Shown here: positions 1 to 5,781 of the stretch, in pieces
Position numbering within the stretch: position 1 is the first letter of the stretch
Layout: every line of letters begins with the position of its first letter
IMG/VR virus record: IMGVR_UViG_3300045988_010059
Coordinates: 1 to 5,781 of that record
Length of the DNA: 5,781 nt
Origin: a virus
Reading direction: 5' to 3' (one strand)
Position numbers and translations under genes: made by a program
Notes under the pieces: model-generated
Databases searched by the model: none
What the model was told of the DNA's origin: nothing
The model's input: the letters and a program-made list of their open reading frames with translations, nothing else

Positions 1-55
1 CGGATGAAGAAACATTTGGCTATCAGGAAGCCTGGGCAGACTACCGGATGAAACC
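1..55. repeat. Terminal direct repeat, copy 1 (identical to 5727..5781); circular-genome assembly overlap
   Basis: cggatgaagaaacatttggctatcaggaagcctgggcagactaccggatgaaacc occurs at 1..55 and again, base for base, at 5727..5781. It lies inside one continuous reading frame. Confidence 0.9.
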
Positions 56-296
56 AAACCGTGTTTCCGGCCTTATGAGAAGCAACGCGACCGGTACGTT
101 GGACTTCTGGCATTACGCAGACGTCTACAGTACCGTGCCGACGCTCAGCCAGGAATGGATGGCGGAGGGCAAAGCAGAAATTGCACGAACGCTAATTGTG
201 CAGGATGAGCCGCAATTCTTCGGGGCCGTGCGTATCGCAAATAAGACCACAAGACGGATGCCGCTATACAGCGTGCCCGGCCTGTACAAACTGTAA
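1..296 (+). CDS. VP1: Major capsid protein VP1 (phiX174 F homologue), C-terminal end of the ORF that begins at 4343 and wraps around the circle
   Basis: Position 1 equals 5727, so the frame is continuous with 4343..5781; codon phase starts at position 3. Translation reads ...DEETFGYQEAWADYRMKPNRVSGLMRSN...PQFFGAVRIANKTTRRMPLYSVPGLYKL, with stop TAA at 294..296. The GYQEAWADYRxKPNRVSG block is a conserved C-terminal microvirus capsid motif. The 48..296 ORF in the track is only the part after an internal Met. Confidence 0.93.
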   Translation, partial: DEETFGYQEAWADYRMKPNRVSGLMRSNATGTLDFWHYADVYSTVPTLSQEWMAEGKAEIARTLIVQDEPQFFGAVRIANKTTRRMPLYSVPGLYKL

Positions 297-306
297 GAAA
301 GGAGGA

Positions 307-331
307 AGTCCGGAGAAATCCGGGCTATTTT
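307..331 (+). promoter_or_regulatory. RNA hairpin with GAAA tetraloop plus short T-run between VP1 stop and VP2 start (leaky terminator and/or SD-bridging structure)
   Basis: Pairs are 307:326, 308:325, 309:324 (G-U), 310:323, 311:322, 312:321, 313:320 and 314:319. The loop is GAAA (315..318), followed by TATTTT (326..331). GGAGG at 301..305 lies immediately 5' of the stem and the VP2 ATG is at 334. Confidence 0.45.
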
Positions 332-333
332 AA

Positions 334-1188
334 ATGGATCCATTAACAATCATGTCAATGGTTGGCGCAGGAGCTAATGCGATAGGAAGCATTGCGGGAG
401 CGGCCAAAAACCTTGGAAGCATGTTTGGCGGTTGGGGTCAGACAGGAAACAGCCAGAGCCAAGGCGGCAGTGTAAGCCAAGGCGGCGGCCATTCCGAAAG
501 CGGAAGCCAATCAGGAACGAACATTGAACAGGTGCAAAAGTGGCTGGAAGGTGCATACCAATACCAAGCAGGAGAAGCACAAAGACAAAGCCAATTTAAC
601 ACCGGCTCCATGCTTAAGCAAATGGGCTACAATACCTTGAGCGCAATCGCACAGGGCATCTATAACCACATCGAAAACACAGCGGCAATGAATTTTAACA
701 GCACCGAAGCCATGAAAAACAGAGAATGGCAGGAAAGAATGAGCTCCACAGCCTATCAGAGAGCCGTAGAGGATATGAAAAAAGCAGGGCTTAATCCAAT
801 ACTGGCATTCGCAAACGGCGGCGCAAGCACACCGGGAGGAAGTGCGGCAACGATAAGCGGCGCAAGTATGGGACTTGCAAGCAGTAGTGCACTAGGCGTA
901 AGCAGAAGTGGAGGATTTGTGCCAAACGCATACAGCAGCAGCAGTTGGAGCAAATCAGACTGGTACAACGCTGCACAAAGCTGGCAGCAAATGCTAAGTC
1001 AAACGCACCTGACACCCTATGGAATGACAAAAGCGCTAACAGAAATTGGAAAAGGCACCGACAAGGTAACCGAAGAAGCAATTGAAAAAGCAGCGCCAAA
1101 GCAGGGAAGAAAGCAAGAATTCACAAAGCCGCAAAACAAAACGGGAGATTATGGAGAAAAAAGAGAGCCAGGTGATTATTTAAAGTGA
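334..1188 (+). CDS. VP2: Minor capsid / DNA pilot protein VP2 (284 aa)
   Basis: Has a Gly/Ala-rich hydrophobic N-terminus (MDPLTIMSMVGAGANAIGSIAGAAKNLGS). Contains the block STAYQRAVEDMKKAGLNPILAF, which matches the conserved core of gokushovirus VP2 proteins. Lies directly 3' of VP1, as in gokushoviruses. Stop TGA at 1186..1188. Confidence 0.85.
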   Translation: MDPLTIMSMVGAGANAIGSIAGAAKNLGSMFGGWGQTGNSQSQGGSVSQGGGHSESGSQSGTNIEQVQKWLEGAYQYQAGEAQRQSQFNTGSMLKQMGYNTLSAIAQGIYNHIENTAAMNFNSTEAMKNREWQERMSSTAYQRAVEDMKKAGLNPILAFANGGASTPGGSAATISGASMGLASSSALGVSRSGGFVPNAYSSSSWSKSDWYNAAQSWQQMLSQTHLTPYGMTKALTEIGKGTDKVTEEAIEKAAPKQGRKQEFTKPQNKTGDYGEKREPGDYLK

Positions 1189-2207
1189 GCTGTTACAAGC
1201 CGTTAATACGGATATACAGCCCGGAAGATAGAGAAATAAGCGGGCGGGTGATGTCACTTGCCCGCTTTTCTGAGTTAGCCGGGAAAAAAATGAAATATGA
1301 AGATCTGATGTATAATCCAAAAGTAATGTTGATACCATGCGGAAAGTGCATAGGATGCAGAATCAGACAACGAGAGGACTGGACAACGCGTATAGAGCTA
1401 GAAGCGAGAACGTGGCCAAAAGAGCAAGTGTGGTTCATCACACTGACTTATGATGATGATCACGTACCGGGCATGATAGTAAAAACCGGTGAAATTATGC
1501 GTAAAGTGCAGTACGTCTGGAAGCCGGGAGAGAAAGCGCCTGAAAGCGTACAAACATTACTATATCCGGATATGCAAAAATTCTTAAAACGTCTCAGAAA
1601 GGCTTATAGGGACCAATTACGCTATTTCTGTGCGGGAGAATACGGAGAACAAACGGCAAGGCCGCACTATCACATGATTTTGTATGGATGGCAACCAACA
1701 GACCTAAAGCAAATCTATAAAATAAGACACAACGGATATTACACCAGCGAATGGATGTGCAATCTATGGGGCATGGGTCAAATACAGATAGCACAGGCAA
1801 CACCCGAAACCTATAGATATGTTGCAGGCTATGTCACAAAAAAGATGTACGAAATTGACGGCCAGAAAGCAAATATATATTATGAACTAGGCCAGCAAAA
1901 GCCATTTGCATGTATGAGCCTGAAACCGGGCCTTGGAGACGCCTATTATCAAGATCACAAGGAAGAGATATGGCAAAAAGGCTACATCCAATGTACCAAC
2001 GGGAAGCAGGCACAAATTCCGCGATACTACGAAAAAATGATGGAAGCAGAAAACCCGGAACGACTGTGGAGAATCAAAAGAAACCGACAGAAAGCAGTTA
2101 TTGAGCAAAACAGGCTCAAATACGAAAATGCAGACTATGAGAAGGACTTAAAGACGAAGGAACGAGTTATCAAAAAGTCTGTAAAGATCCAAAAGGGCGG
2201 CTTATAA
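1185..2207 (+). CDS. VP4: Replication initiation protein VP4 (HUH rolling-circle endonuclease, phiX174 A-like), 340 aa, GTG start
   Basis: RCR motifs are FITLTY (motif 1), RPHYHMILYG (HUH, motif 2) and YVAGYVTKK (two-tyrosine motif 3, compare phiX174 A YVAKYVNK). There is also a Cys cluster, CGKCIGC. GTG at 1185 overlaps the VP2 stop (GTGA) and is preceded by AGGTGA at 1170..1175. Stop TAA at 2205..2207. Confidence 0.93.
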   Translation: MSCYKPLIRIYSPEDREISGRVMSLARFSELAGKKMKYEDLMYNPKVMLIPCGKCIGCRIRQREDWTTRIELEARTWPKEQVWFITLTYDDDHVPGMIVKTGEIMRKVQYVWKPGEKAPESVQTLLYPDMQKFLKRLRKAYRDQLRYFCAGEYGEQTARPHYHMILYGWQPTDLKQIYKIRHNGYYTSEWMCNLWGMGQIQIAQATPETYRYVAGYVTKKMYEIDGQKANIYYELGQQKPFACMSLKPGLGDAYYQDHKEEIWQKGYIQCTNGKQAQIPRYYEKMMEAENPERLWRIKRNRQKAVIEQNRLKYENADYEKDLKTKERVIKKSVKIQKGGL

Positions 2208-2215
2208 GATTTTTG

Positions 2216-2263
2216 GTGTCACCTAGCCCAGTACCTATCAAGTAAGGTACTGGGCTATTGGTG
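2216..2263 (+). terminator. Long perfect stem-loop after VP4: candidate intrinsic terminator and/or ssDNA origin structure
   Basis: tagcccagtacc (2224..2235) is the exact reverse complement of ggtactgggcta (2246..2257). T2236:A2245 adds a 13th pair. After a 2-nt bulge, cacc (2220..2223) can pair with ggtg (2260..2263). The stem is followed by the interrupted T-rich stretch ttggtgtttattc. Confidence 0.5.
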
Positions 2264-2270
2264 TTTATTC

Positions 2271-2314
2271 GCACGCGCACGCGCACGCGTAGACGCGCGC
2301 ACATGCGCACGCGT
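2271..2314. repeat. GC-rich alternating purine-pyrimidine tract containing (GCACGC)x3 and two ACGCGT palindromes
   Basis: Sequence is gcacgc gcacgc gcacgc gtagac gcgcgc acatgc gcacgc gt. Strict R/Y alternation holds over 2271..2291 and 2293..2315, broken only at G2292. The tract is embedded in an otherwise AT-rich non-coding region. Confidence 0.85.
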
Positions 2315-2354
2315 AATATTATTATATAACTTGTTGTAGACGTAGTAGTAGGGC

Positions 2355-2520
2355 ATGTGGAAAAGTTGAAAAGCTACTTTTTTTAACGTAGCATCGGAAA
2401 AAAGTAATAAAAAAACAGTGTTGAAAGAATTGTGAATAAATTGTTGAATTGTTGAAACACTCTGTTGTGATAAAGTTTAACAATGTGGAAATGTTGAAAA
2501 CTATGTGGAAAGTGTTGAAA
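2355..2520 (+). repeat. Iteron array: 3 copies of ATGTGGAAA-N(1-3)-GTTGAAA plus extra GTTGAA(A)/TTGTTGAA units; protein-binding sites of unknown specificity
   Basis: Composite units are at 2355..2372 (atgtggaaaagttgaaaa), 2483..2500 (atgtggaaatgttgaaaa) and 2503..2520 (atgtggaaagtgttgaaa). GTTGAA starts at 2365, 2420, 2443, 2451, 2493 and 2514. TTGTTGAA is tandemly repeated at 2441..2456. All copies share one orientation. Confidence 0.8.
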
Positions 2521-2543
2521 GCGCCTAACGGCGAAAGTTCCAA

Positions 2544-2575
2544 TTTGTACAAAATTGCTACGCAACCTTGTACAA
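2544..2575. promoter_or_regulatory. Pair of TTGTACAA palindromes (candidate operator sites) just upstream of the -35 box
   Basis: TTTGTACAAA at 2544..2553 is a perfect 10-bp palindrome and TTGTACAA at 2568..2575 a perfect 8-bp one. Their centres are 23 bp apart. Both are followed by AA(A)TTG. Confidence 0.5.
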
Positions 2576-2583
2576 ATTGAAAC

Positions 2584-2612
2584 TTGACAATTGTAAAGAG
2601 AAATGCTATAAT
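2584..2612 (+). promoter_or_regulatory. Consensus sigma70/sigmaA-type promoter with extended -10
   Basis: TTGACA (2584..2589), a 17-nt spacer, TATAAT (2607..2612), and TG at 2604..2605 giving TGnTATAAT. Lies 25 nt upstream of the ATG at 2638, at the end of the only long non-coding region. Confidence 0.7.
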
Positions 2613-2637
2613 ATAACCAGAAAGAGAGGTAAAAACA

Positions 2638-2829
2638 ATGAAAAGCCACTACGAATACACCGAAAACAAAAAAGTAAAATGTTATCATTCAGATATTGAC
2701 GGGTCTATCTATTATCCTTATACCTACGACAAAAAATTGGGGTGCTGGACGAACCGAAGCGGCGAGCTATCCAGACAGAGAATCAACCAGCTAGAAAACG
2801 AAGATGAAAACAAAATAATGTGGATGTAA
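2638..2829 (+). CDS. Hypothetical protein, 63 aa (no recognisable family)
   Basis: First ORF after the consensus promoter. GAGAGG at 2624..2629 lies 8 nt before the ATG. Sequence is MKSHYEYTENKKVKCYHSDIDGSIYYPYTYDKKLGCWTNRSGELSRQRINQLENEDENKIMWM. No hydrophobic segment. Confidence 0.5.
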   Translation: MKSHYEYTENKKVKCYHSDIDGSIYYPYTYDKKLGCWTNRSGELSRQRINQLENEDENKIMWM

Positions 2830-2849
2830 AACAAAGGAGAATTTGCAGA

Positions 2850-3242
2850 ATGCTTAGAGTATACACAAGCGAGCAGAACAACGAGCAGGTCGGGCCACAC
2901 TTTAAAGTGAAAGAATTCGCCTGCAAAGACGGAAGCGCAATCACATTCATTGACGACTACATGGTGACAATTCTGGAACTGCTCAGAAAAGAACTGGGCA
3001 ATAAACCAATCATCATCACAAGCGGCTACAGAACACCAGCACACAACGCCAAAGTAGGAGGGGCAAAGTATAGCTATCACATGCGTGGCATGGCCGTAGA
3101 TATCCGCGTAAACGGAATATCTGCAAAAGAAGTGGCAAAAGCCCTTGACAAGATAGTAGGAAGCTGTGGTATAATCGTATACGAAAGTTGGGTACATTTC
3201 GATGTGCGCGACGGCAAAAAGTACAGAAAGGGGATGACATAA
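2850..3242 (+). CDS. Zinc peptidase, M15 family (Peptidase_M15_3 / YcbK-like cell-wall D,D- or L,D-peptidase), 130 aa; probable lysis enzyme
   Basis: Translation contains FKVKEFACKDG...PIIITSGYRTPAHNAKVGGAKYSYHMRGMAVDI...WVHFDVRDG. This is the SGYR-x4-N-x3-GG-x3-S-x-H-x2-G-x-A-x-D and W-x-H-x-D signature with H/D/H zinc ligands. ATG 2850 is preferred over the track's GTG 2820 because AAGGAG (2834..2839) lies 10 nt upstream. Stop TAA at 3240..3242. Confidence 0.85.
   Translation: MLRVYTSEQNNEQVGPHFKVKEFACKDGSAITFIDDYMVTILELLRKELGNKPIIITSGYRTPAHNAKVGGAKYSYHMRGMAVDIRVNGISAKEVAKALDKIVGSCGIIVYESWVHFDVRDGKKYRKGMT
3145..3175 (+). promoter_or_regulatory. Candidate internal promoter inside the 3' end of the peptidase gene
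   Basis: TTGACA (3145..3150), a 19-nt spacer, TATAAT (3170..3175), with TG at 3167..3168 (TGgTATAAT). Both hexamers are perfect, but the spacer is longer than the optimal 17. Confidence 0.4.
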
Positions 3243-3358
3243 TGGCATTGATTTCCATCAAGGACGTAAAGCAGGCAATCCACATCATGATGCAGATTTT
3301 GGAAAAGCTCGATGAGATTTACCATGCACTGCATGACGAAATCAAGAAGGAGGACTAA
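3242..3358 (+). CDS. Hypothetical small protein, 38 aa (below the ORF-track cutoff)
   Basis: ATG 3242 overlaps the peptidase stop (TAATG). AGGGG at 3229..3233 lies 8 nt upstream. Sequence is MALISIKDVKQAIHIMMQILEKLDEIYHALHDEIKKED, with stop TAA at 3356..3358. Predicted amphipathic helix, no transmembrane segment. Confidence 0.35.
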   Translation: MALISIKDVKQAIHIMMQILEKLDEIYHALHDEIKKED

Positions 3359-3363
3359 CCAAC

Positions 3364-3591
3364 ATGGGCCTACACAAGTCATGGAACGTAAGGGACCAGA
3401 CCAAAGAAGAGTTGCAAAACATTCTTGAAAAGAAATACAAGGAGATTGACGCAAACTTTAAACTGCTACGTAAAGTGAGCGATATTGAAACGGCAAAAAA
3501 GCTGGTAGATGAAATATGGCAGATGAAGGGCTTTGCGAACGCAATCGAACTTGAACTTATCAGAAGGGGGATTTACAATGGCACATCGTAA
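3364..3591 (+). CDS. Hypothetical protein, 75 aa (helical, charged; no recognisable family)
   Basis: GGAGG at 3349..3353 lies 10 nt before ATG 3364. Sequence is MGLHKSWNVRDQTKEELQNILEKKYKEIDANFKLLRKVSDIETAKKLVDEIWQMKGFANAIELELIRRGIYNGTS. The 3' end overlaps the next gene by 14 nt. Confidence 0.55.
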   Translation: MGLHKSWNVRDQTKEELQNILEKKYKEIDANFKLLRKVSDIETAKKLVDEIWQMKGFANAIELELIRRGIYNGTS

Positions 3592-3697
3592 GAAGATGAA
3601 CATGCGAAAGGACAAGCGCATGTTCAACGCGACCGCACGAAAAACCAAAAGTATCAACCTGAGCCAGAAGCCCCTGCGCGGTGGCATCCGGCTGTAA
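3578..3697 (+). CDS. Small basic DNA-binding/packaging protein (gokushovirus ORF8/VP8-like, functional analogue of phiX174 J), 39 aa
   Basis: Sequence is MAHRKKMNMRKDKRMFNATARKTKSINLSQKPLRGGIRL. It has an Arg/Lys-rich N-terminus, the KRxF-x-xTA block and the C-terminal RGGIRL, as in Chlamydia-phage ORF8 proteins that end in MRGGIRF. AGAAGGGGG at 3562..3570 precedes ATG 3578. Not in the ORF track because it is under 60 aa. Confidence 0.8.
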   Translation: MAHRKKMNMRKDKRMFNATARKTKSINLSQKPLRGGIRL

Positions 3698-3713
3698 AAA
3701 AAGGAGAAAAACA

Positions 3714-3953
3714 ATGGAACATCTGTACTATGGTATCTGGGACAACGTGGCAAAGTGCTATGCATGGGTCGGCGAAAGCAAAAACAACGCAACCTTTGCG
3801 CGCATGTGCAACGTGATGGCAAAGGATGAAAAAACCTTCCTGGGCCAGTCACCGGGTGACTACATCGGCTACAGGCTGGCCGCATTCAACGATGAAAGCG
3901 GCGAGTTCCACAACGACAAAGAAAAGGTGTGGGAGGGCAAGCCGCATGAATAA
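3714..3953 (+). CDS. Conserved gokushovirus small non-structural protein (VP5-like), 79 aa
   Basis: AAGGAG at 3701..3706 precedes ATG 3714; the track's GTG 3681 start lies inside the previous gene. Sequence is MEHLYYGIWDNVAKCYAWVGESKNNATFARMCNV...SPGDYIGYRLAAFNDESGEF. This fits my recollection of the Y-x-D-x2-A...A-x-R-x-F...P-x-DY-x-L...FD-x2-(S/T)G pattern of small proteins encoded between VP4 and VP3 in gokushoviruses. Confidence 0.6.
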   Translation: MEHLYYGIWDNVAKCYAWVGESKNNATFARMCNVMAKDEKTFLGQSPGDYIGYRLAAFNDESGEFHNDKEKVWEGKPHE

Positions 3954-4356
3954 ACGATATGAGGAGGGGCGCAAGCCCCTCTTTTCTGAACCGGGAAAAA
4001 ACGAAAGAAAACAGTACGTCTGGGCAAAGGATAAAGACGGCAAGGAATACTTGCAGGAAACCGAAAGCATCGATGTACAGGCAGAAATTGAAAGCTATGC
4101 AGACGAATGTGACATAAAAAACATTGTCAGGAAAGCAAGTTTCGACCCGGAATTCCTGAAAAGCCTGTCACAGGGTGCACTGTCCGAGGAAGAAACGCCT
4201 ATCATGGATATCACCGGATGGCCACAGAACGTACACGAATATCACCAGATGATGGCAACGGCACAGGTAAACGCCATGAAACTAGAAGAGCTGAAGAAAG
4301 CTCAGGAAAACGCACCGGAAAAGGTGCAGAAGGAGGAAGCAAATGAACAGAAATAA
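3946..4356 (+). CDS. VP3: Internal scaffolding protein VP3, 136 aa
   Basis: GGGAGGG at 3931..3937 lies 8 nt before ATG 3946. The acidic protein contains QAEIESYADECDIKNIVRKA, compare the conserved ..ECDIN.I... block of gokushovirus VP3. It lies immediately upstream of VP1 and overlaps it by 14 nt. The track's 3826 start would add 40 codons fully overlapping the previous gene with no SD. Confidence 0.75.
   Translation: MNKRYEEGRKPLFSEPGKNERKQYVWAKDKDGKEYLQETESIDVQAEIESYADECDIKNIVRKASFDPEFLKSLSQGALSEEETPIMDITGWPQNVHEYHQMMATAQVNAMKLEELKKAQENAPEKVQKEEANEQK
3961..3985 (+). terminator. GC-rich hairpin with GCAA tetraloop followed by TTTT, located inside the first 14 codons of VP3
   Basis: gaggggc (3964..3970) pairs perfectly with gcccctc (3975..3981). 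The loop is GCAA (3971..3974), followed by TTTT (3982..3985). It starts 8 nt after the stop of the VP5-like gene. Confidence 0.45.
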
Positions 4357-5781
4357 CGAACGGCATTTCCTTCAGATTCCGGAAATGCACGCAAGCCGAA
4401 CGCGATTCAATCGAGACCAGACGATTTTAACAACGTTTGATTCTGGAAAGCTCATCCCATTCTTTGTGGACGAAGTATTACCGGGCGATACCTTCCAGGT
4501 GGACACAACGGCAATTATCCGAATGAGCACACCGAAATATCCGGTAATGGACGATGCATTCATTGACTTTTACTATTTCTACACACCGAACCGAATTCTT
4601 TGGGACAGCTTCAAACACTTCATGGGTGAGGTGGAAGAAACGCCATGGATGCCTACAAAGACATACGCTGTGCCGCAAATCAAAATCAACGGCACGGACG
4701 CAAAGCCTGCACCGGACGAAAGGTCCATTCTGGATTATATGGGTGTACCGACGAAAATCAAAAAGCCTTTTACCATCAACGCATTGCCCATCCGGGCATA
4801 CGTCAAAATCTGGAATGAATTTTTTAGGGACGAAAACGTGGACAACGCGGCAGTTCTGAAAAGCGATGACGCAGACGTGACGTACAACTTCACGGAAGAA
4901 AAATCCGAAACACTGGAAAAAGACCTGCAAAACGCAGTCCTTGGCGGCAACCTGTTGCCGGTAAACAAGTACCATGACTACTTTACCAGCTGTTTACCTT
5001 ATCCACAGCGTGGGCCAGAAGTTGCGCTGCCGATGCAAGGTAATGCACCACTGGAAGCATACACGACAGACAAACTTACAGAAAAAGTCAAGTTGGAAGG
5101 TCAAAAAACACTTCTATGGCAAACAAACAGTGACAATGAAGGAAGCCTTCCAGAAACATTTGCAGGAGGATACAACAAAATTGGAACATCGTTTGGGGCA
5201 AAAATAAGCGGCGAAACCATCACAAAAAGATACTATCTGGGAACAGATCTGAGCGCCGTAACAGCCACAACTATCAACGACTTACGACAGGCCGTAGCAG
5301 TACAGCAGTATTACGAAGCACTATCAAGAGGTGGCAGCCGGTACCGCGAGCAGGTACAAGCACTGTGGGATGTGACCATCAGTGACAAAACCGTACAGAT
5401 TCCGGAATATCTGGGCGGTGGCAGATACCAAGTCAACGTCAATCAAATTATTCAGACCAGCGGCCAACAGAACGAAAACGACACACCCCTAGGCGAAACC
5501 GGTGCAGTATCCGTAACACCTATCAGAGAAAGCTCGTTCACCAAGAGCTTTGAAGAGCACGGCTTTGTCATCGGCGTTGCGTGCGTGCGACACAATCGGA
5601 GCTATCAGCAGGGCCTTGAACGCTTCTGGAGCAGAAAAGACCGTTTGGACTACTATGTACCACAGTTTGCCAACCTTGGCGAACAGCCGGTAAAAAAGAA
5701 AGAAATCATGCTCACCGGAAACGCAACGGATGAAGAAACATTTGGCTATCAGGAAGCCTGGGCAGACTACCGGATGAAACC
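4343..5781 (+). CDS. VP1: Major capsid protein VP1 (phiX174 F homologue), first ~479 codons; the ORF is open to the window end and continues at position 56 (full ORF 1,680 nt, 559 aa)
   Basis: GGAGG at 4332..4336 lies 6 nt before ATG 4343. Hand translation shows no stop through 5781. Recognisable blocks are MNRNNERHFLQIPEMHASRTRFNRDQTILTTFDSGKLIPFFVDEVLPGDTFQVDT..., ...KYHDYFTSCLPYPQRG..., ...TINDLRQAVAVQQYYEALSRGGSRYREQVQALWDV... and ...FGYQEAWADYRMKP. These are hallmark microvirus capsid blocks. Confidence 0.95.
   Translation, partial: MNRNNERHFLQIPEMHASRTRFNRDQTILTTFDSGKLIPFFVDEVLPGDTFQVDTTAIIRMSTPKYPVMDDAFIDFYYFYTPNRILWDSFKHFMGEVEETPWMPTKTYAVPQIKINGTDAKPAPDERSILDYMGVPTKIKKPFTINALPIRAYVKIWNEFFRDENVDNAAVLKSDDADVTYNFTEEKSETLEKDLQNAVLGGNLLPVNKYHDYFTSCLPYPQRGPEVALPMQGNAPLEAYTTDKLTEKVKLEGQKTLLWQTNSDNEGSLPETFAGGYNKIGTSFGAKISGETITKRYYLGTDLSAVTATTINDLRQAVAVQQYYEALSRGGSRYREQVQALWDVTISDKTVQIPEYLGGGRYQVNVNQIIQTSGQQNENDTPLGETGAVSVTPIRESSFTKSFEEHGFVIGVACVRHNRSYQQGLERFWSRKDRLDYYVPQFANLGEQPVKKKEIMLTGNATDEETFGYQEAWADYRMK
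5727..5781. repeat. Terminal direct repeat, copy 2 (identical to 1..55)
   Basis: Exact 55-nt identity with the window start. Confidence 0.9.

Follow-up and report, generated by a model that had tools for sequence, protein, structure and literature searches.

A putative oriC-like, DnaA-binding module of Ruminococcus type in the intergenic region of a gut gokushovirus

Introduction

Rolling-circle replication that dispenses with the host initiator is classically exemplified by the microviruses, of which phiX174 relies on its own nuclease, with the cleavage motif CAACTTG^A, and on a PriA primosome. Among other small replicons, pMV158 has a rolling-circle double-strand origin whose bind locus, made of direct repeats, accompanies a nick locus, the ABC-primosome A sites of R6K and pBR322 need their DnaA box in a duplex hairpin stem, and pSC101, RK2 oriV, F and P1 oriR are theta replicons that carry host DnaA sites plus iterons for their own initiator; we know of no DnaA-trio element described for the latter four. 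Here we analyzed a 5,781-nt stretch of gokushovirus DNA (IMG/VR record IMGVR_UViG_3300045988_010059, positions 1 to 5,781; hereafter the window) and a repeat array within it. We propose that positions 2315-2521 probably form an oriC-like module that would bind the host initiator DnaA, comprising about ten boxes, a box pair, a spacer, DnaA-trios and an unwinding stretch.

The closest described element is the basal unwinding system (BUS) of bacterial chromosomes, reportedly defined in Bacillus subtilis incC by Richardson 2016 and 2019, and also by Pelliciari 2021 (PMC8287927). A BUS has a run of 5'-TAG-3' triplets beside a DnaA box, with 4-5 GC-rich bp between and AT-rich DNA beyond; from the box pair, DnaA extends along the single-strand DnaA-trios (3'-GAT-5') and thereby opens the origin, for which three box-adjacent trios are necessary and sufficient (PMC8287927, bioRxiv 2022.03.18.484894, PMC8235120). 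The box-trio spacer is 4-5 bp in the literature (PMC8235120), DnaA loading onto trios requires duplex boxes in cis (PMC8287927; bioRxiv 2022.03.18.484894), the box next to the trios has at most two mismatches to TTATCCACA (PMC8287927), and in B. subtilis the distal box of the pair is the essential one (PMC8287927). The C. difficile origin is an example of such an unwinding element (PMC7561715).

Results

As a preliminary description of this DNA had stated, the array lies in the sole long non-coding region of the window (2208-2637). The motif between the AT-rich stretch and the array is TTGTTGTAGACGTAGTAGTAG, and together they resolve into the following features.

2315-2330: AT-rich stretch AATATTATTATATAAC, 6% GC, at the position of a DNA unwinding element
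2331-2351, + strand: seven in-register triplets TTG TTG TAG ACG TAG TAG TAG, resembling DnaA-trios (5'-TAG-3' = 3'-GAT-5')
2352-2355: 4-nt spacer GGCA, 75% GC, between the triplets and the first box
2356-2364, - strand: putative DnaA box 1, TTTTCCACA on - (TGTGGAAAA on +), proximal to the triplets
2364-2372, - strand: putative DnaA box 2, AGTTGAAAA on +, tandem to box 1 at an 8-nt offset
2375-2406: short inverted repeat TACTTTTTT/AAAAAAGTA, between boxes
2419-2458, - strand: putative boxes 3-6, TGTTGAAAG (2419), TGTGAATAA (2431), TGTTGAATT (2442) and TGTTGAAAC (2450), spaced 12, 11 and 8 nt apart
2476-2483, + strand: weak unit in inverted orientation, TTTAACAA (reverse complement TTGTTAAA), retained by just 25 of 64 relatives
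2484-2521, - strand: putative boxes 7-10, TGTGGAAAT (2484), TGTTGAAAA (2492), TGTGGAAAG (2504) and TGTTGAAAG (2513), to the module end

Read on the - strand, this succession of box cluster, tandem pair, 4-nt spacer, seven trio-type triplets and AT-rich stretch, followed by a GC-rich tract, corresponds in its sequence layout to the architecture of a BUS, for which at least three consecutive trios are expected 5' of a box on the strand reading TGTGGATAA; TAG TAG TAG stands at 2343-2351, 5' of TGTGGAAAA on the + strand. Box 1 has one mismatch to TTATCCACA and none to the relaxed consensus TTWTNCACA, within the BUS limit of two, and box 2 (reverse complement TTTTCAACT) has three, within the limit of four for a second box. 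The window's 4-nt spacer agrees with the 4-5 GC-rich bp of a BUS, and the AT-rich region past the triplets is supplied by 2315-2330, ~16 nt bounded by a tract of 72% GC. The fit of TTTTCCACA, the reverse complement of 2356-2364, to TTWTNCACA had already been recognized; a second fit, TTATTCACA at 2431-2439, had been overlooked. Taken as one pattern, TAGTAGTAG-N4-TGTGGAWAA-GTKGAWAA is found a single time in the window (2343-2372, an exact fit) and in 0 of 200 shuffles.

We searched one genome per bacterial species with the composite TAGTAGTAG-N3-5-TGTGGAWAA-GTKGAWAA, taking trio orientation from PMC8287927, PMC8235120 and the bacterial loci themselves, and found that it matches at least 120 loci across many phyla, against a chance expectation well below one by base-composition arithmetic. 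DnaA and/or DnaN are encoded within 8 kb at 82 of the 120 loci listed, and both at 57. Among the 40 of 120 rows inspected, the two genes flank the match wherever both were found, and in all of these rows but one (L228) the match is oriented with its boxes towards dnaA and its triplets and AT-rich side towards dnaN. Of 80 tabulated matches, 79 have a 4-nt spacer and all 80 have the AT-rich tract on the TAG side; GTKGAWAA is present in every match by construction of the pattern, and GTTGAWAA in 5 of the 80. Because most of the matches sit by dnaA and/or dnaN, with a 4-nt spacer and an AT-rich TAG side, we take the composite for a chromosomal unwinding element, of which the window carries a predicted copy with matching orientation and spacing.

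A looser-pattern scan of viral contigs matched this gokushovirus clade and two IMG/VR contigs (L171 and L138, 9.7 and 28 kb), which have the same layout with canonical boxes and carry TGTTGATAA beside TGTGGATAA in obvious DnaA-box arrays; the G-to-T variant therefore occurs inside true box clusters. Complete (TA)n-(TAG)3-5-4nt-box-box elements were seen in L138 (1100-1290, - strand), L171 (340-545), L099 and L143 (9.7 to 158 kb), with co-oriented DnaA-box arrays at ~11-nt spacing after the element in L138 and L171, and oriC-like unwinding modules may be more widespread on phages or phage-plasmids. A further group of contigs, several of 94-97 kb and others of 18 to 122 kb (L103, L108, L109, L121, L125, L134, L135, L142, L151, L157, L159, L161, L169 and L173), has TAGTAGTAG-N5-TGTGGAAAA in common; this match lies in a conserved stretch that is not AT-rich and is probably coding sequence that fits the pattern by chance.

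The array had been described as spanning 2355-2520 and as built from a composite iteron, ATGTGGAAA-N-GTTGAAA. Every count and coordinate behind that description proved correct and far above chance: ATGTGGAAA occurs at 2355, 2483 and 2503 with GTTGAAA following after 1, 1 and 2 nt, and GTTGAA occurs six times on the + strand (2365, 2420, 2443, 2451, 2493 and 2514, at spacings of 55, 23, 8, 42 and 21). These six copies fall inside 155 nt, and the rest of the window has just two, both on the - strand; TGTGGAAA is present in three copies versus 0.36 expected, all on the + strand and all intergenic. As a repeat unit the composite is nevertheless misleading, each one consisting of two adjacent boxes in which the GTTGAAA part is a box variant. 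We aligned the intergenic regions of 64 distinct relatives with VP4 81-98% identical and found that TGTGGAAA, TGTTGAAA and TGTTAAAA interchange at given slots. Because they swap at the same slots, the unit is best taken as a 9-mer, NGT[T/G][G/A]A[A/T]AN, present in ten copies that are all on the + strand and start at 2356, 2364, 2419, 2431, 2442, 2450, 2484, 2492, 2504 and 2513. Slot 1 is NGTGGAAAA in 44 of the 64 relatives and slot 4 is TGTTGAAAA in most, and some relatives have different sequences at the inverted repeat 2375-2406 that are still inverted repeats. The earlier limits missed the most diagnostic part of the element, which reaches upstream to ~2315.

A box pair identical to that of the window is present in Ruminococcus flavefaciens L290, where (TAG)4-GGGC-TGTGGAAAA-GTTGAAAA lies between Pfam-confirmed dnaA and dnaN. 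Of the 44 units in the L290 intergenic region, 39 are co-oriented; most units read TGTTGAAA[A/G] and some TGTGGAAAA, and their spacings are mostly 9-11 nt. L290 is the sole GTTGAAA-rich locus among the 120 listed (17 copies per 700 nt versus 2 in the next best). Other Ruminococcus origins, reached via DnaA homologues, read (TTG)4-GGGG-TGTTGAAAC-TGTGGAAAAG and TTG TTG TAG TAG TTG-GAGC-GGTTGAAAT; since TTG and TAG trios both occur in Ruminococcus origins, the TTG TTG triplets of the phage fit the same variant. Compared as unit profiles, the phage clade (601 units) and Ruminococcus (77 units) agree at degenerate positions and flanks, with r = 0.87 at unconstrained positions and a T:G ratio at position 4 of 0.82:0.18 versus 0.77:0.23. 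The putative TGTTGAAAA/TGTGGAAAA boxes and T[A/T]G triplets of the module thereby correspond to the variant of R. flavefaciens-group chromosomal origins, and the R. flavefaciens group is the likely host lineage because the module shares this origin sequence variant. By blastn of the intergenic region against bacterial origin loci, similarity was confined to the ~32-nt composite; capture and convergence are indistinguishable, because similarity beyond ~32 nt is at the level of motifs and not alignable.

In the R. flavefaciens group, the origins at L290 5367-6850, L337 4329-5398 and L339 4372-4989 have boxes of the TGTTGAAAA type together with T[T/A]G trios, and one Ruminococcus genome has a pure (TTG)4 run, without the central adenine regarded as critical. 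DnaA of the Ruminococcus lineage carries GGRDHSTIVYS in 120 of 120 homologues, its Tyr replacing a His conserved in other DnaA (presumably the counterpart of E. coli His439, by our alignment), and ARK in place of the PRQ of other DnaA. The deviant motif would fit an altered box preference, and the group may represent a natural deviation in both DnaA box and trio specificity.

Alignment of the intergenic regions of related microviruses, a check put forward in the preliminary description, showed the units to be conserved: conservation peaks in the units and the upstream motif, is low between units, where the DNA varies freely, and collapses after ~2525. At least three TAG, the 4-nt spacer and two boxes are kept in 57 of 64 relatives, with a spacer length of 4 in all 57 where it could be parsed and a variable spacer sequence. 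All 64 relatives retain the distal box of the pair (the box 2 slot) and 57 the proximal one, and the median number of co-oriented units across relatives is nine, with none on the opposite strand. Upstream, TAACTTG TTG TAG NNG TAG TAG TAG hardly changes between relatives, the one variable triplet being the fourth (NNG); the adjoining TAAC is invariant and the three box-proximal triplets almost so. Purifying selection is thus seen on the proximal trios, the length of the spacer and the pair's distal box, the parts that would serve unwinding, and their conservation argues for an unwinding function rather than for titration or a dead remnant. Runs of 5-6 TAG occur in three relatives (L032, L036 and L082) and three tandem CGTGGAAAA units follow the triplets in another (L009, about 3480-3520); such varying copy numbers of TAG and units suggest slippage-type turnover of both repeat classes.

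These patterns bear on the idea that the array is a datA-like DnaA sink or sensor, titrating host DnaA or regulating the nearby phage promoter with no origin role. A multicopy replicative form with ten boxes per copy could tie up much DnaA, and the sole strong promoter (2584-2612) is 60-230 nt downstream of the array. Yet the triplets, the exact 4-nt spacer and the AT flank are the best conserved parts, which titration alone would not conserve, and the array segregates with VP4, whereas the promoter module, from which it separates, is exchanged in relatives. We regard a sink without origin role as quite improbable.

Array and VP4 gene are inherited together as a single block. MG945383 and MG945430 resemble the window over 1186-2520 and nowhere else, the megablast match to H10 and H11 stops at ~2520-2525, where conservation also ends, and two pig-gut relatives are alike only from the VP4 start to ~2520, with another promoter module downstream; because these two share only this segment, the array belongs to the VP4 module. 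In five genomes from lineages whose VP4 is no more than 36% identical we found no array, no TAG run and no common core, and their AACTTG matches are parts of TTGACA promoters; because the array is absent there, no series of Rep/iteron covariation could be built.

Inheritance with VP4 is also what one would expect if the units were iterons bound by VP4 as the Rep protein, forming a bind locus beside the nick site, as in rolling-circle plasmids, and resembled DnaA boxes by coincidence. The array abuts an invariant motif with ACTTG, as in the phiX174 cleavage site, ACTTG or ATTG often precedes units so that the left half of the core (AACTTGTTG-TAG) is unit-like, and absence of the array where VP4 is at most 36% identical is as expected of Rep-specific iterons. 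However, such iterons leave unexplained why boxes, tandem pair, spacer, triplets, orientation and AT flank together form the origin element of at least 120 bacterial loci, and why the units match those of Ruminococcus origins position by position. Judged as Rep iterons, the repeats are linked to VP4 and absent with distant VP4, yet they match Ruminococcus origin boxes and so are not private to the replicon, and linkage to VP4 is equally expected if VP4 nicks inside a DnaA-melted region. Iterons with a coincidental likeness to DnaA boxes seem unlikely. Binding sites for VP4 or a regulator, which the preliminary description gave as its alternative, are less parsimonious than DnaA sites because the host-origin match in boxes, spacer, triplets and orientation would remain unexplained.

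The same description had raised the possibility of a DnaA-dependent primosome on single-stranded DNA (ssDNA), which would make the array a complementary-strand origin at which DnaA assembles an ABC-type primosome on the incoming genome. The units are probably DnaA boxes, and the 5'-TAG-3' triplets are on the + strand and would be exposed at entry if + is the packaged strand. The array, however, folds as ssDNA no better than shuffled sequence (z = -0.02), with the box pair and triplets unpaired in the minimum-energy fold and no complementary copy of the box pair on the + strand to partner boxes 1 and 2, and trio loading of DnaA requires duplex boxes in cis (PMC8287927; bioRxiv 2022.03.18.484894). 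In its architecture the region is a duplex-unwinding element. Strong ssDNA hairpins at 2220-2263 and 2535-2585 are better candidates for a single-strand origin, and we hold a primosome assembled on the array to be highly improbable.

The hairpin at 2215-2263, directly after the VP4 stop, shows compensatory stem changes among relatives (TAGCCCAG/CTGGGCTA, TAGGCCAG/CTGGCC, AAGCCAAG/CTTGGC) around an invariant loop region, GTACCTATCAAGTA. It is terminator-like, and the conserved loop suggests a protein reader and may mark a single-strand origin or Rep site. Its reverse complement (TAGCCC, TACTTGATA, GGGCTAGGTGACACCAAA) resembles hairpins of distant microviruses (L091 2955-3005 and L092 2720-2765), whose loop reads CTTGATG on the gene strand, like the phiX174/pC194 nick motif CTTG^AT; relative to the genes, the hairpin of this clade is inverted with respect to those two.

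Several other candidates were rejected. As a sigma-70 promoter array with TTGAAA as -35, the units gave one weak match (2366-2394, 9/12), the -10 of which is not kept in relatives. Spo0A 0A boxes (TGNCGAA) have C at position 4 where the units have T or G, and TGTCGAA appears once among the slots of the 64 relatives. A dif/XerCD-like site in the AT-rich stretch showed poor resemblance by eye. An Rfam scan of the window gave only sub-threshold matches to microRNA families, located on the flanking palindromes and none in the array.

The window is a circular gokushovirus genome of 5726 nt with identical terminal 55 nt (1-55 = 5727-5781); it shares 93% identity with Human gut gokushovirus KX513877 and 91% with Gokushovirus WZ-2015a KT264792. 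All of its genes are on the + strand, and VP1 spans the circle junction, where the window's end repeats its first 55 nt. Genes and the remaining features of the non-coding region are as follows.

4343 to end, joined to 1-296, + strand: VP1
334-1188, + strand: VP2
1185-2207, + strand: VP4 (Rep)
2224-2257: hairpin with a 13-bp stem, within the non-coding region 2208-2637
2268-2314: GC-rich alternating purine-pyrimidine tract (CGCA/CGCG)n, 72% GC, 47 nt, flanking the AT-rich stretch
2535-2585: inverted repeat with 24-nt arms and two TTGTACAA palindromes, abutting the -35 of the promoter
2584-2612: perfect sigma-70-type promoter, TTGACA-17-TGcTATAAT with extended -10, the only strong promoter
2850-3242, + strand: peptidase M15
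3714-3953, + strand: VP5
3946-4356, + strand: VP3

The GC-rich tract is found in all relatives, kept in kind and not in sequence, and in some of them insertions of 50-70 nt, often small hairpins, lie between it and the AT-rich stretch. It is a possible Z-DNA former or melting barrier and may act as a boundary or focus of melting. The inverted repeat beside the promoter is probably an operator. Relatives that share VP4 and the array have unrelated promoter regions in place of the promoter module 2535-2612.

Discussion

The above analyses suggest that the repeats are very probably host DnaA boxes, as the preliminary description had suggested, although it noticed one to three sites of what are ten Ruminococcus-type units and gave too short an extent. 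Several observations weigh against an oriC-like module. Eight of the ten units depart from the relaxed TTWTNCACA; in six of these the departure is C to A at position 6, which is critical for binding by E. coli DnaA. Offsets of 8 nt make up 0.20 of neighbour spacings in the phage clade versus 0.02 in Ruminococcus origins. The AT-rich stretch is just ~16 nt, and spacer GC is lower than in bacteria (clade mean 44%). TGTTGAAA-type boxes are putative DnaA sites in any organism, the Ruminococcus variant being recognized by origin position and density. A VP4 search of one genome per GTDB species returned no relatives, and no prophage or other independent link to a Ruminococcus host. Microviruses studied so far, namely phiX174, require neither DnaA nor an unwinding element. 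Finally, TAACTTGTTGTAG is more strictly invariant than distal trios are in bacteria, so a factor other than DnaA, such as VP4, probably also reads this DNA.

From the sequence evidence we infer DnaA binding, unwinding and the VP4 link, and a route by which they would connect can be outlined. Because it needs duplex boxes, the element would act on the duplex replicative form, where ATP-DnaA would occupy the boxes, oligomerize outward from the pair of boxes 1 and 2 along the triplets of the + strand and melt the adjoining AT-rich stretch. Opening would expose ssDNA for nicking by the HUH nuclease VP4 and so lead to rolling-circle synthesis, or else it would permit loading of the host helicase. 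A VP4 nick in or beside the melted DNA is suggested by the linkage of the array to VP4 and by the invariant TAACTTG beside the trios, which, by its likeness to phiX174 CAACTTG, could speculatively be the nick site. It is possible, though we would not count on it, that initiation on the replicative form of this clade depends on host DnaA through a miniature host-type oriC, with DnaA melting either licensing the VP4 nick or letting the replicative form replicate and persist in the manner of a DnaA-dependent minichromosome.

The type of element is known; what appears to be new is its presence on a rolling-circle ssDNA phage and in a host-specific sequence variant. Our literature searches returned nothing linking Microviridae or gokushoviruses to DnaA boxes, DnaA-trios, iterons or such an origin, and to our knowledge no gokushovirus origin has been mapped, for which the module offers a testable route. 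If the proposal is right, some ssDNA phages couple their replication to the host's master initiator, with consequences for replication timing, episomal persistence and interference with host replication. A DnaA-dependent miniature oriC would also identify the host from the origin variant alone, and phage hosts would become predictable in this way; here it would be the R. flavefaciens group of Ruminococcus, for abundant human and pig gut viruses without a cultured host. It would further give a DnaA whose box (TTTTCAACA) and trio (TTG) are both deviant a natural substrate of ~200 bp, and as a by-product the comparison points to a bacterial lineage with non-consensus DnaA box and trio and changed DNA-contact residues in DnaA.

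Comparison with known replication origins

Like the pMV158 and phiX174 origins, the phage region has direct repeats downstream of a candidate nick motif, in which ACTTG is common to phiX174 CAACTTG^A. The pMV158 type differs in that the phage repeats match a host origin variant and the core has no nick-site hairpin, and the phiX174 origin differs in lying inside gene A and having no repeats. No 30-mer alignable to the phiX174-type 30-nt origin CAACTTGATATTAATAACACTATAGACCAC was found in the window, which has only ACTTG and an AT-rich neighbourhood in common with it (2315-2333). With ABC-primosome A sites the phage would share the use of DnaA by a non-chromosomal replicon, whereas those sites are hairpins on ssDNA with the DnaA box in the stem, and the phage array has none. 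The origins of pSC101, RK2 oriV, F and P1 oriR resemble the module in having DnaA sites, AT-rich and GC-rich regions and the gene of their own initiator near; in contrast, the phage initiator is an HUH rolling-circle nuclease, and the putative boxes are the only repeats.

The bacterial BUS agrees with the phage element in the order, orientation and spacing of all parts, namely two boxes in tandem, 4 nt of spacer, a minimum of three TAG trios and AT-rich DNA beyond, and the stricter conservation of the phage distal box parallels the essential distal box of B. subtilis. It differs in location, being on the chromosome by dnaA, whereas the phage element is on a 5.7-kb ssDNA genome by a rolling-circle Rep gene, between VP4 and the promoter and not at a chromosomal origin. 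The phage AT stretch of ~16 nt, its less GC-rich spacer and the TGTTGAAA variant of most boxes are further differences. The oriC of the R. flavefaciens group (L290, L337 and L339) is larger, with 0.5-1.5 kb, up to 44 boxes and long poly(A)/AT tracts, compared with ~200 bp and ten boxes in the phage. In box variant, 9- and 11-nt spacings, T[A/T]G triplets and 4-nt spacer the two are alike, and in L290 the box pair is identical.

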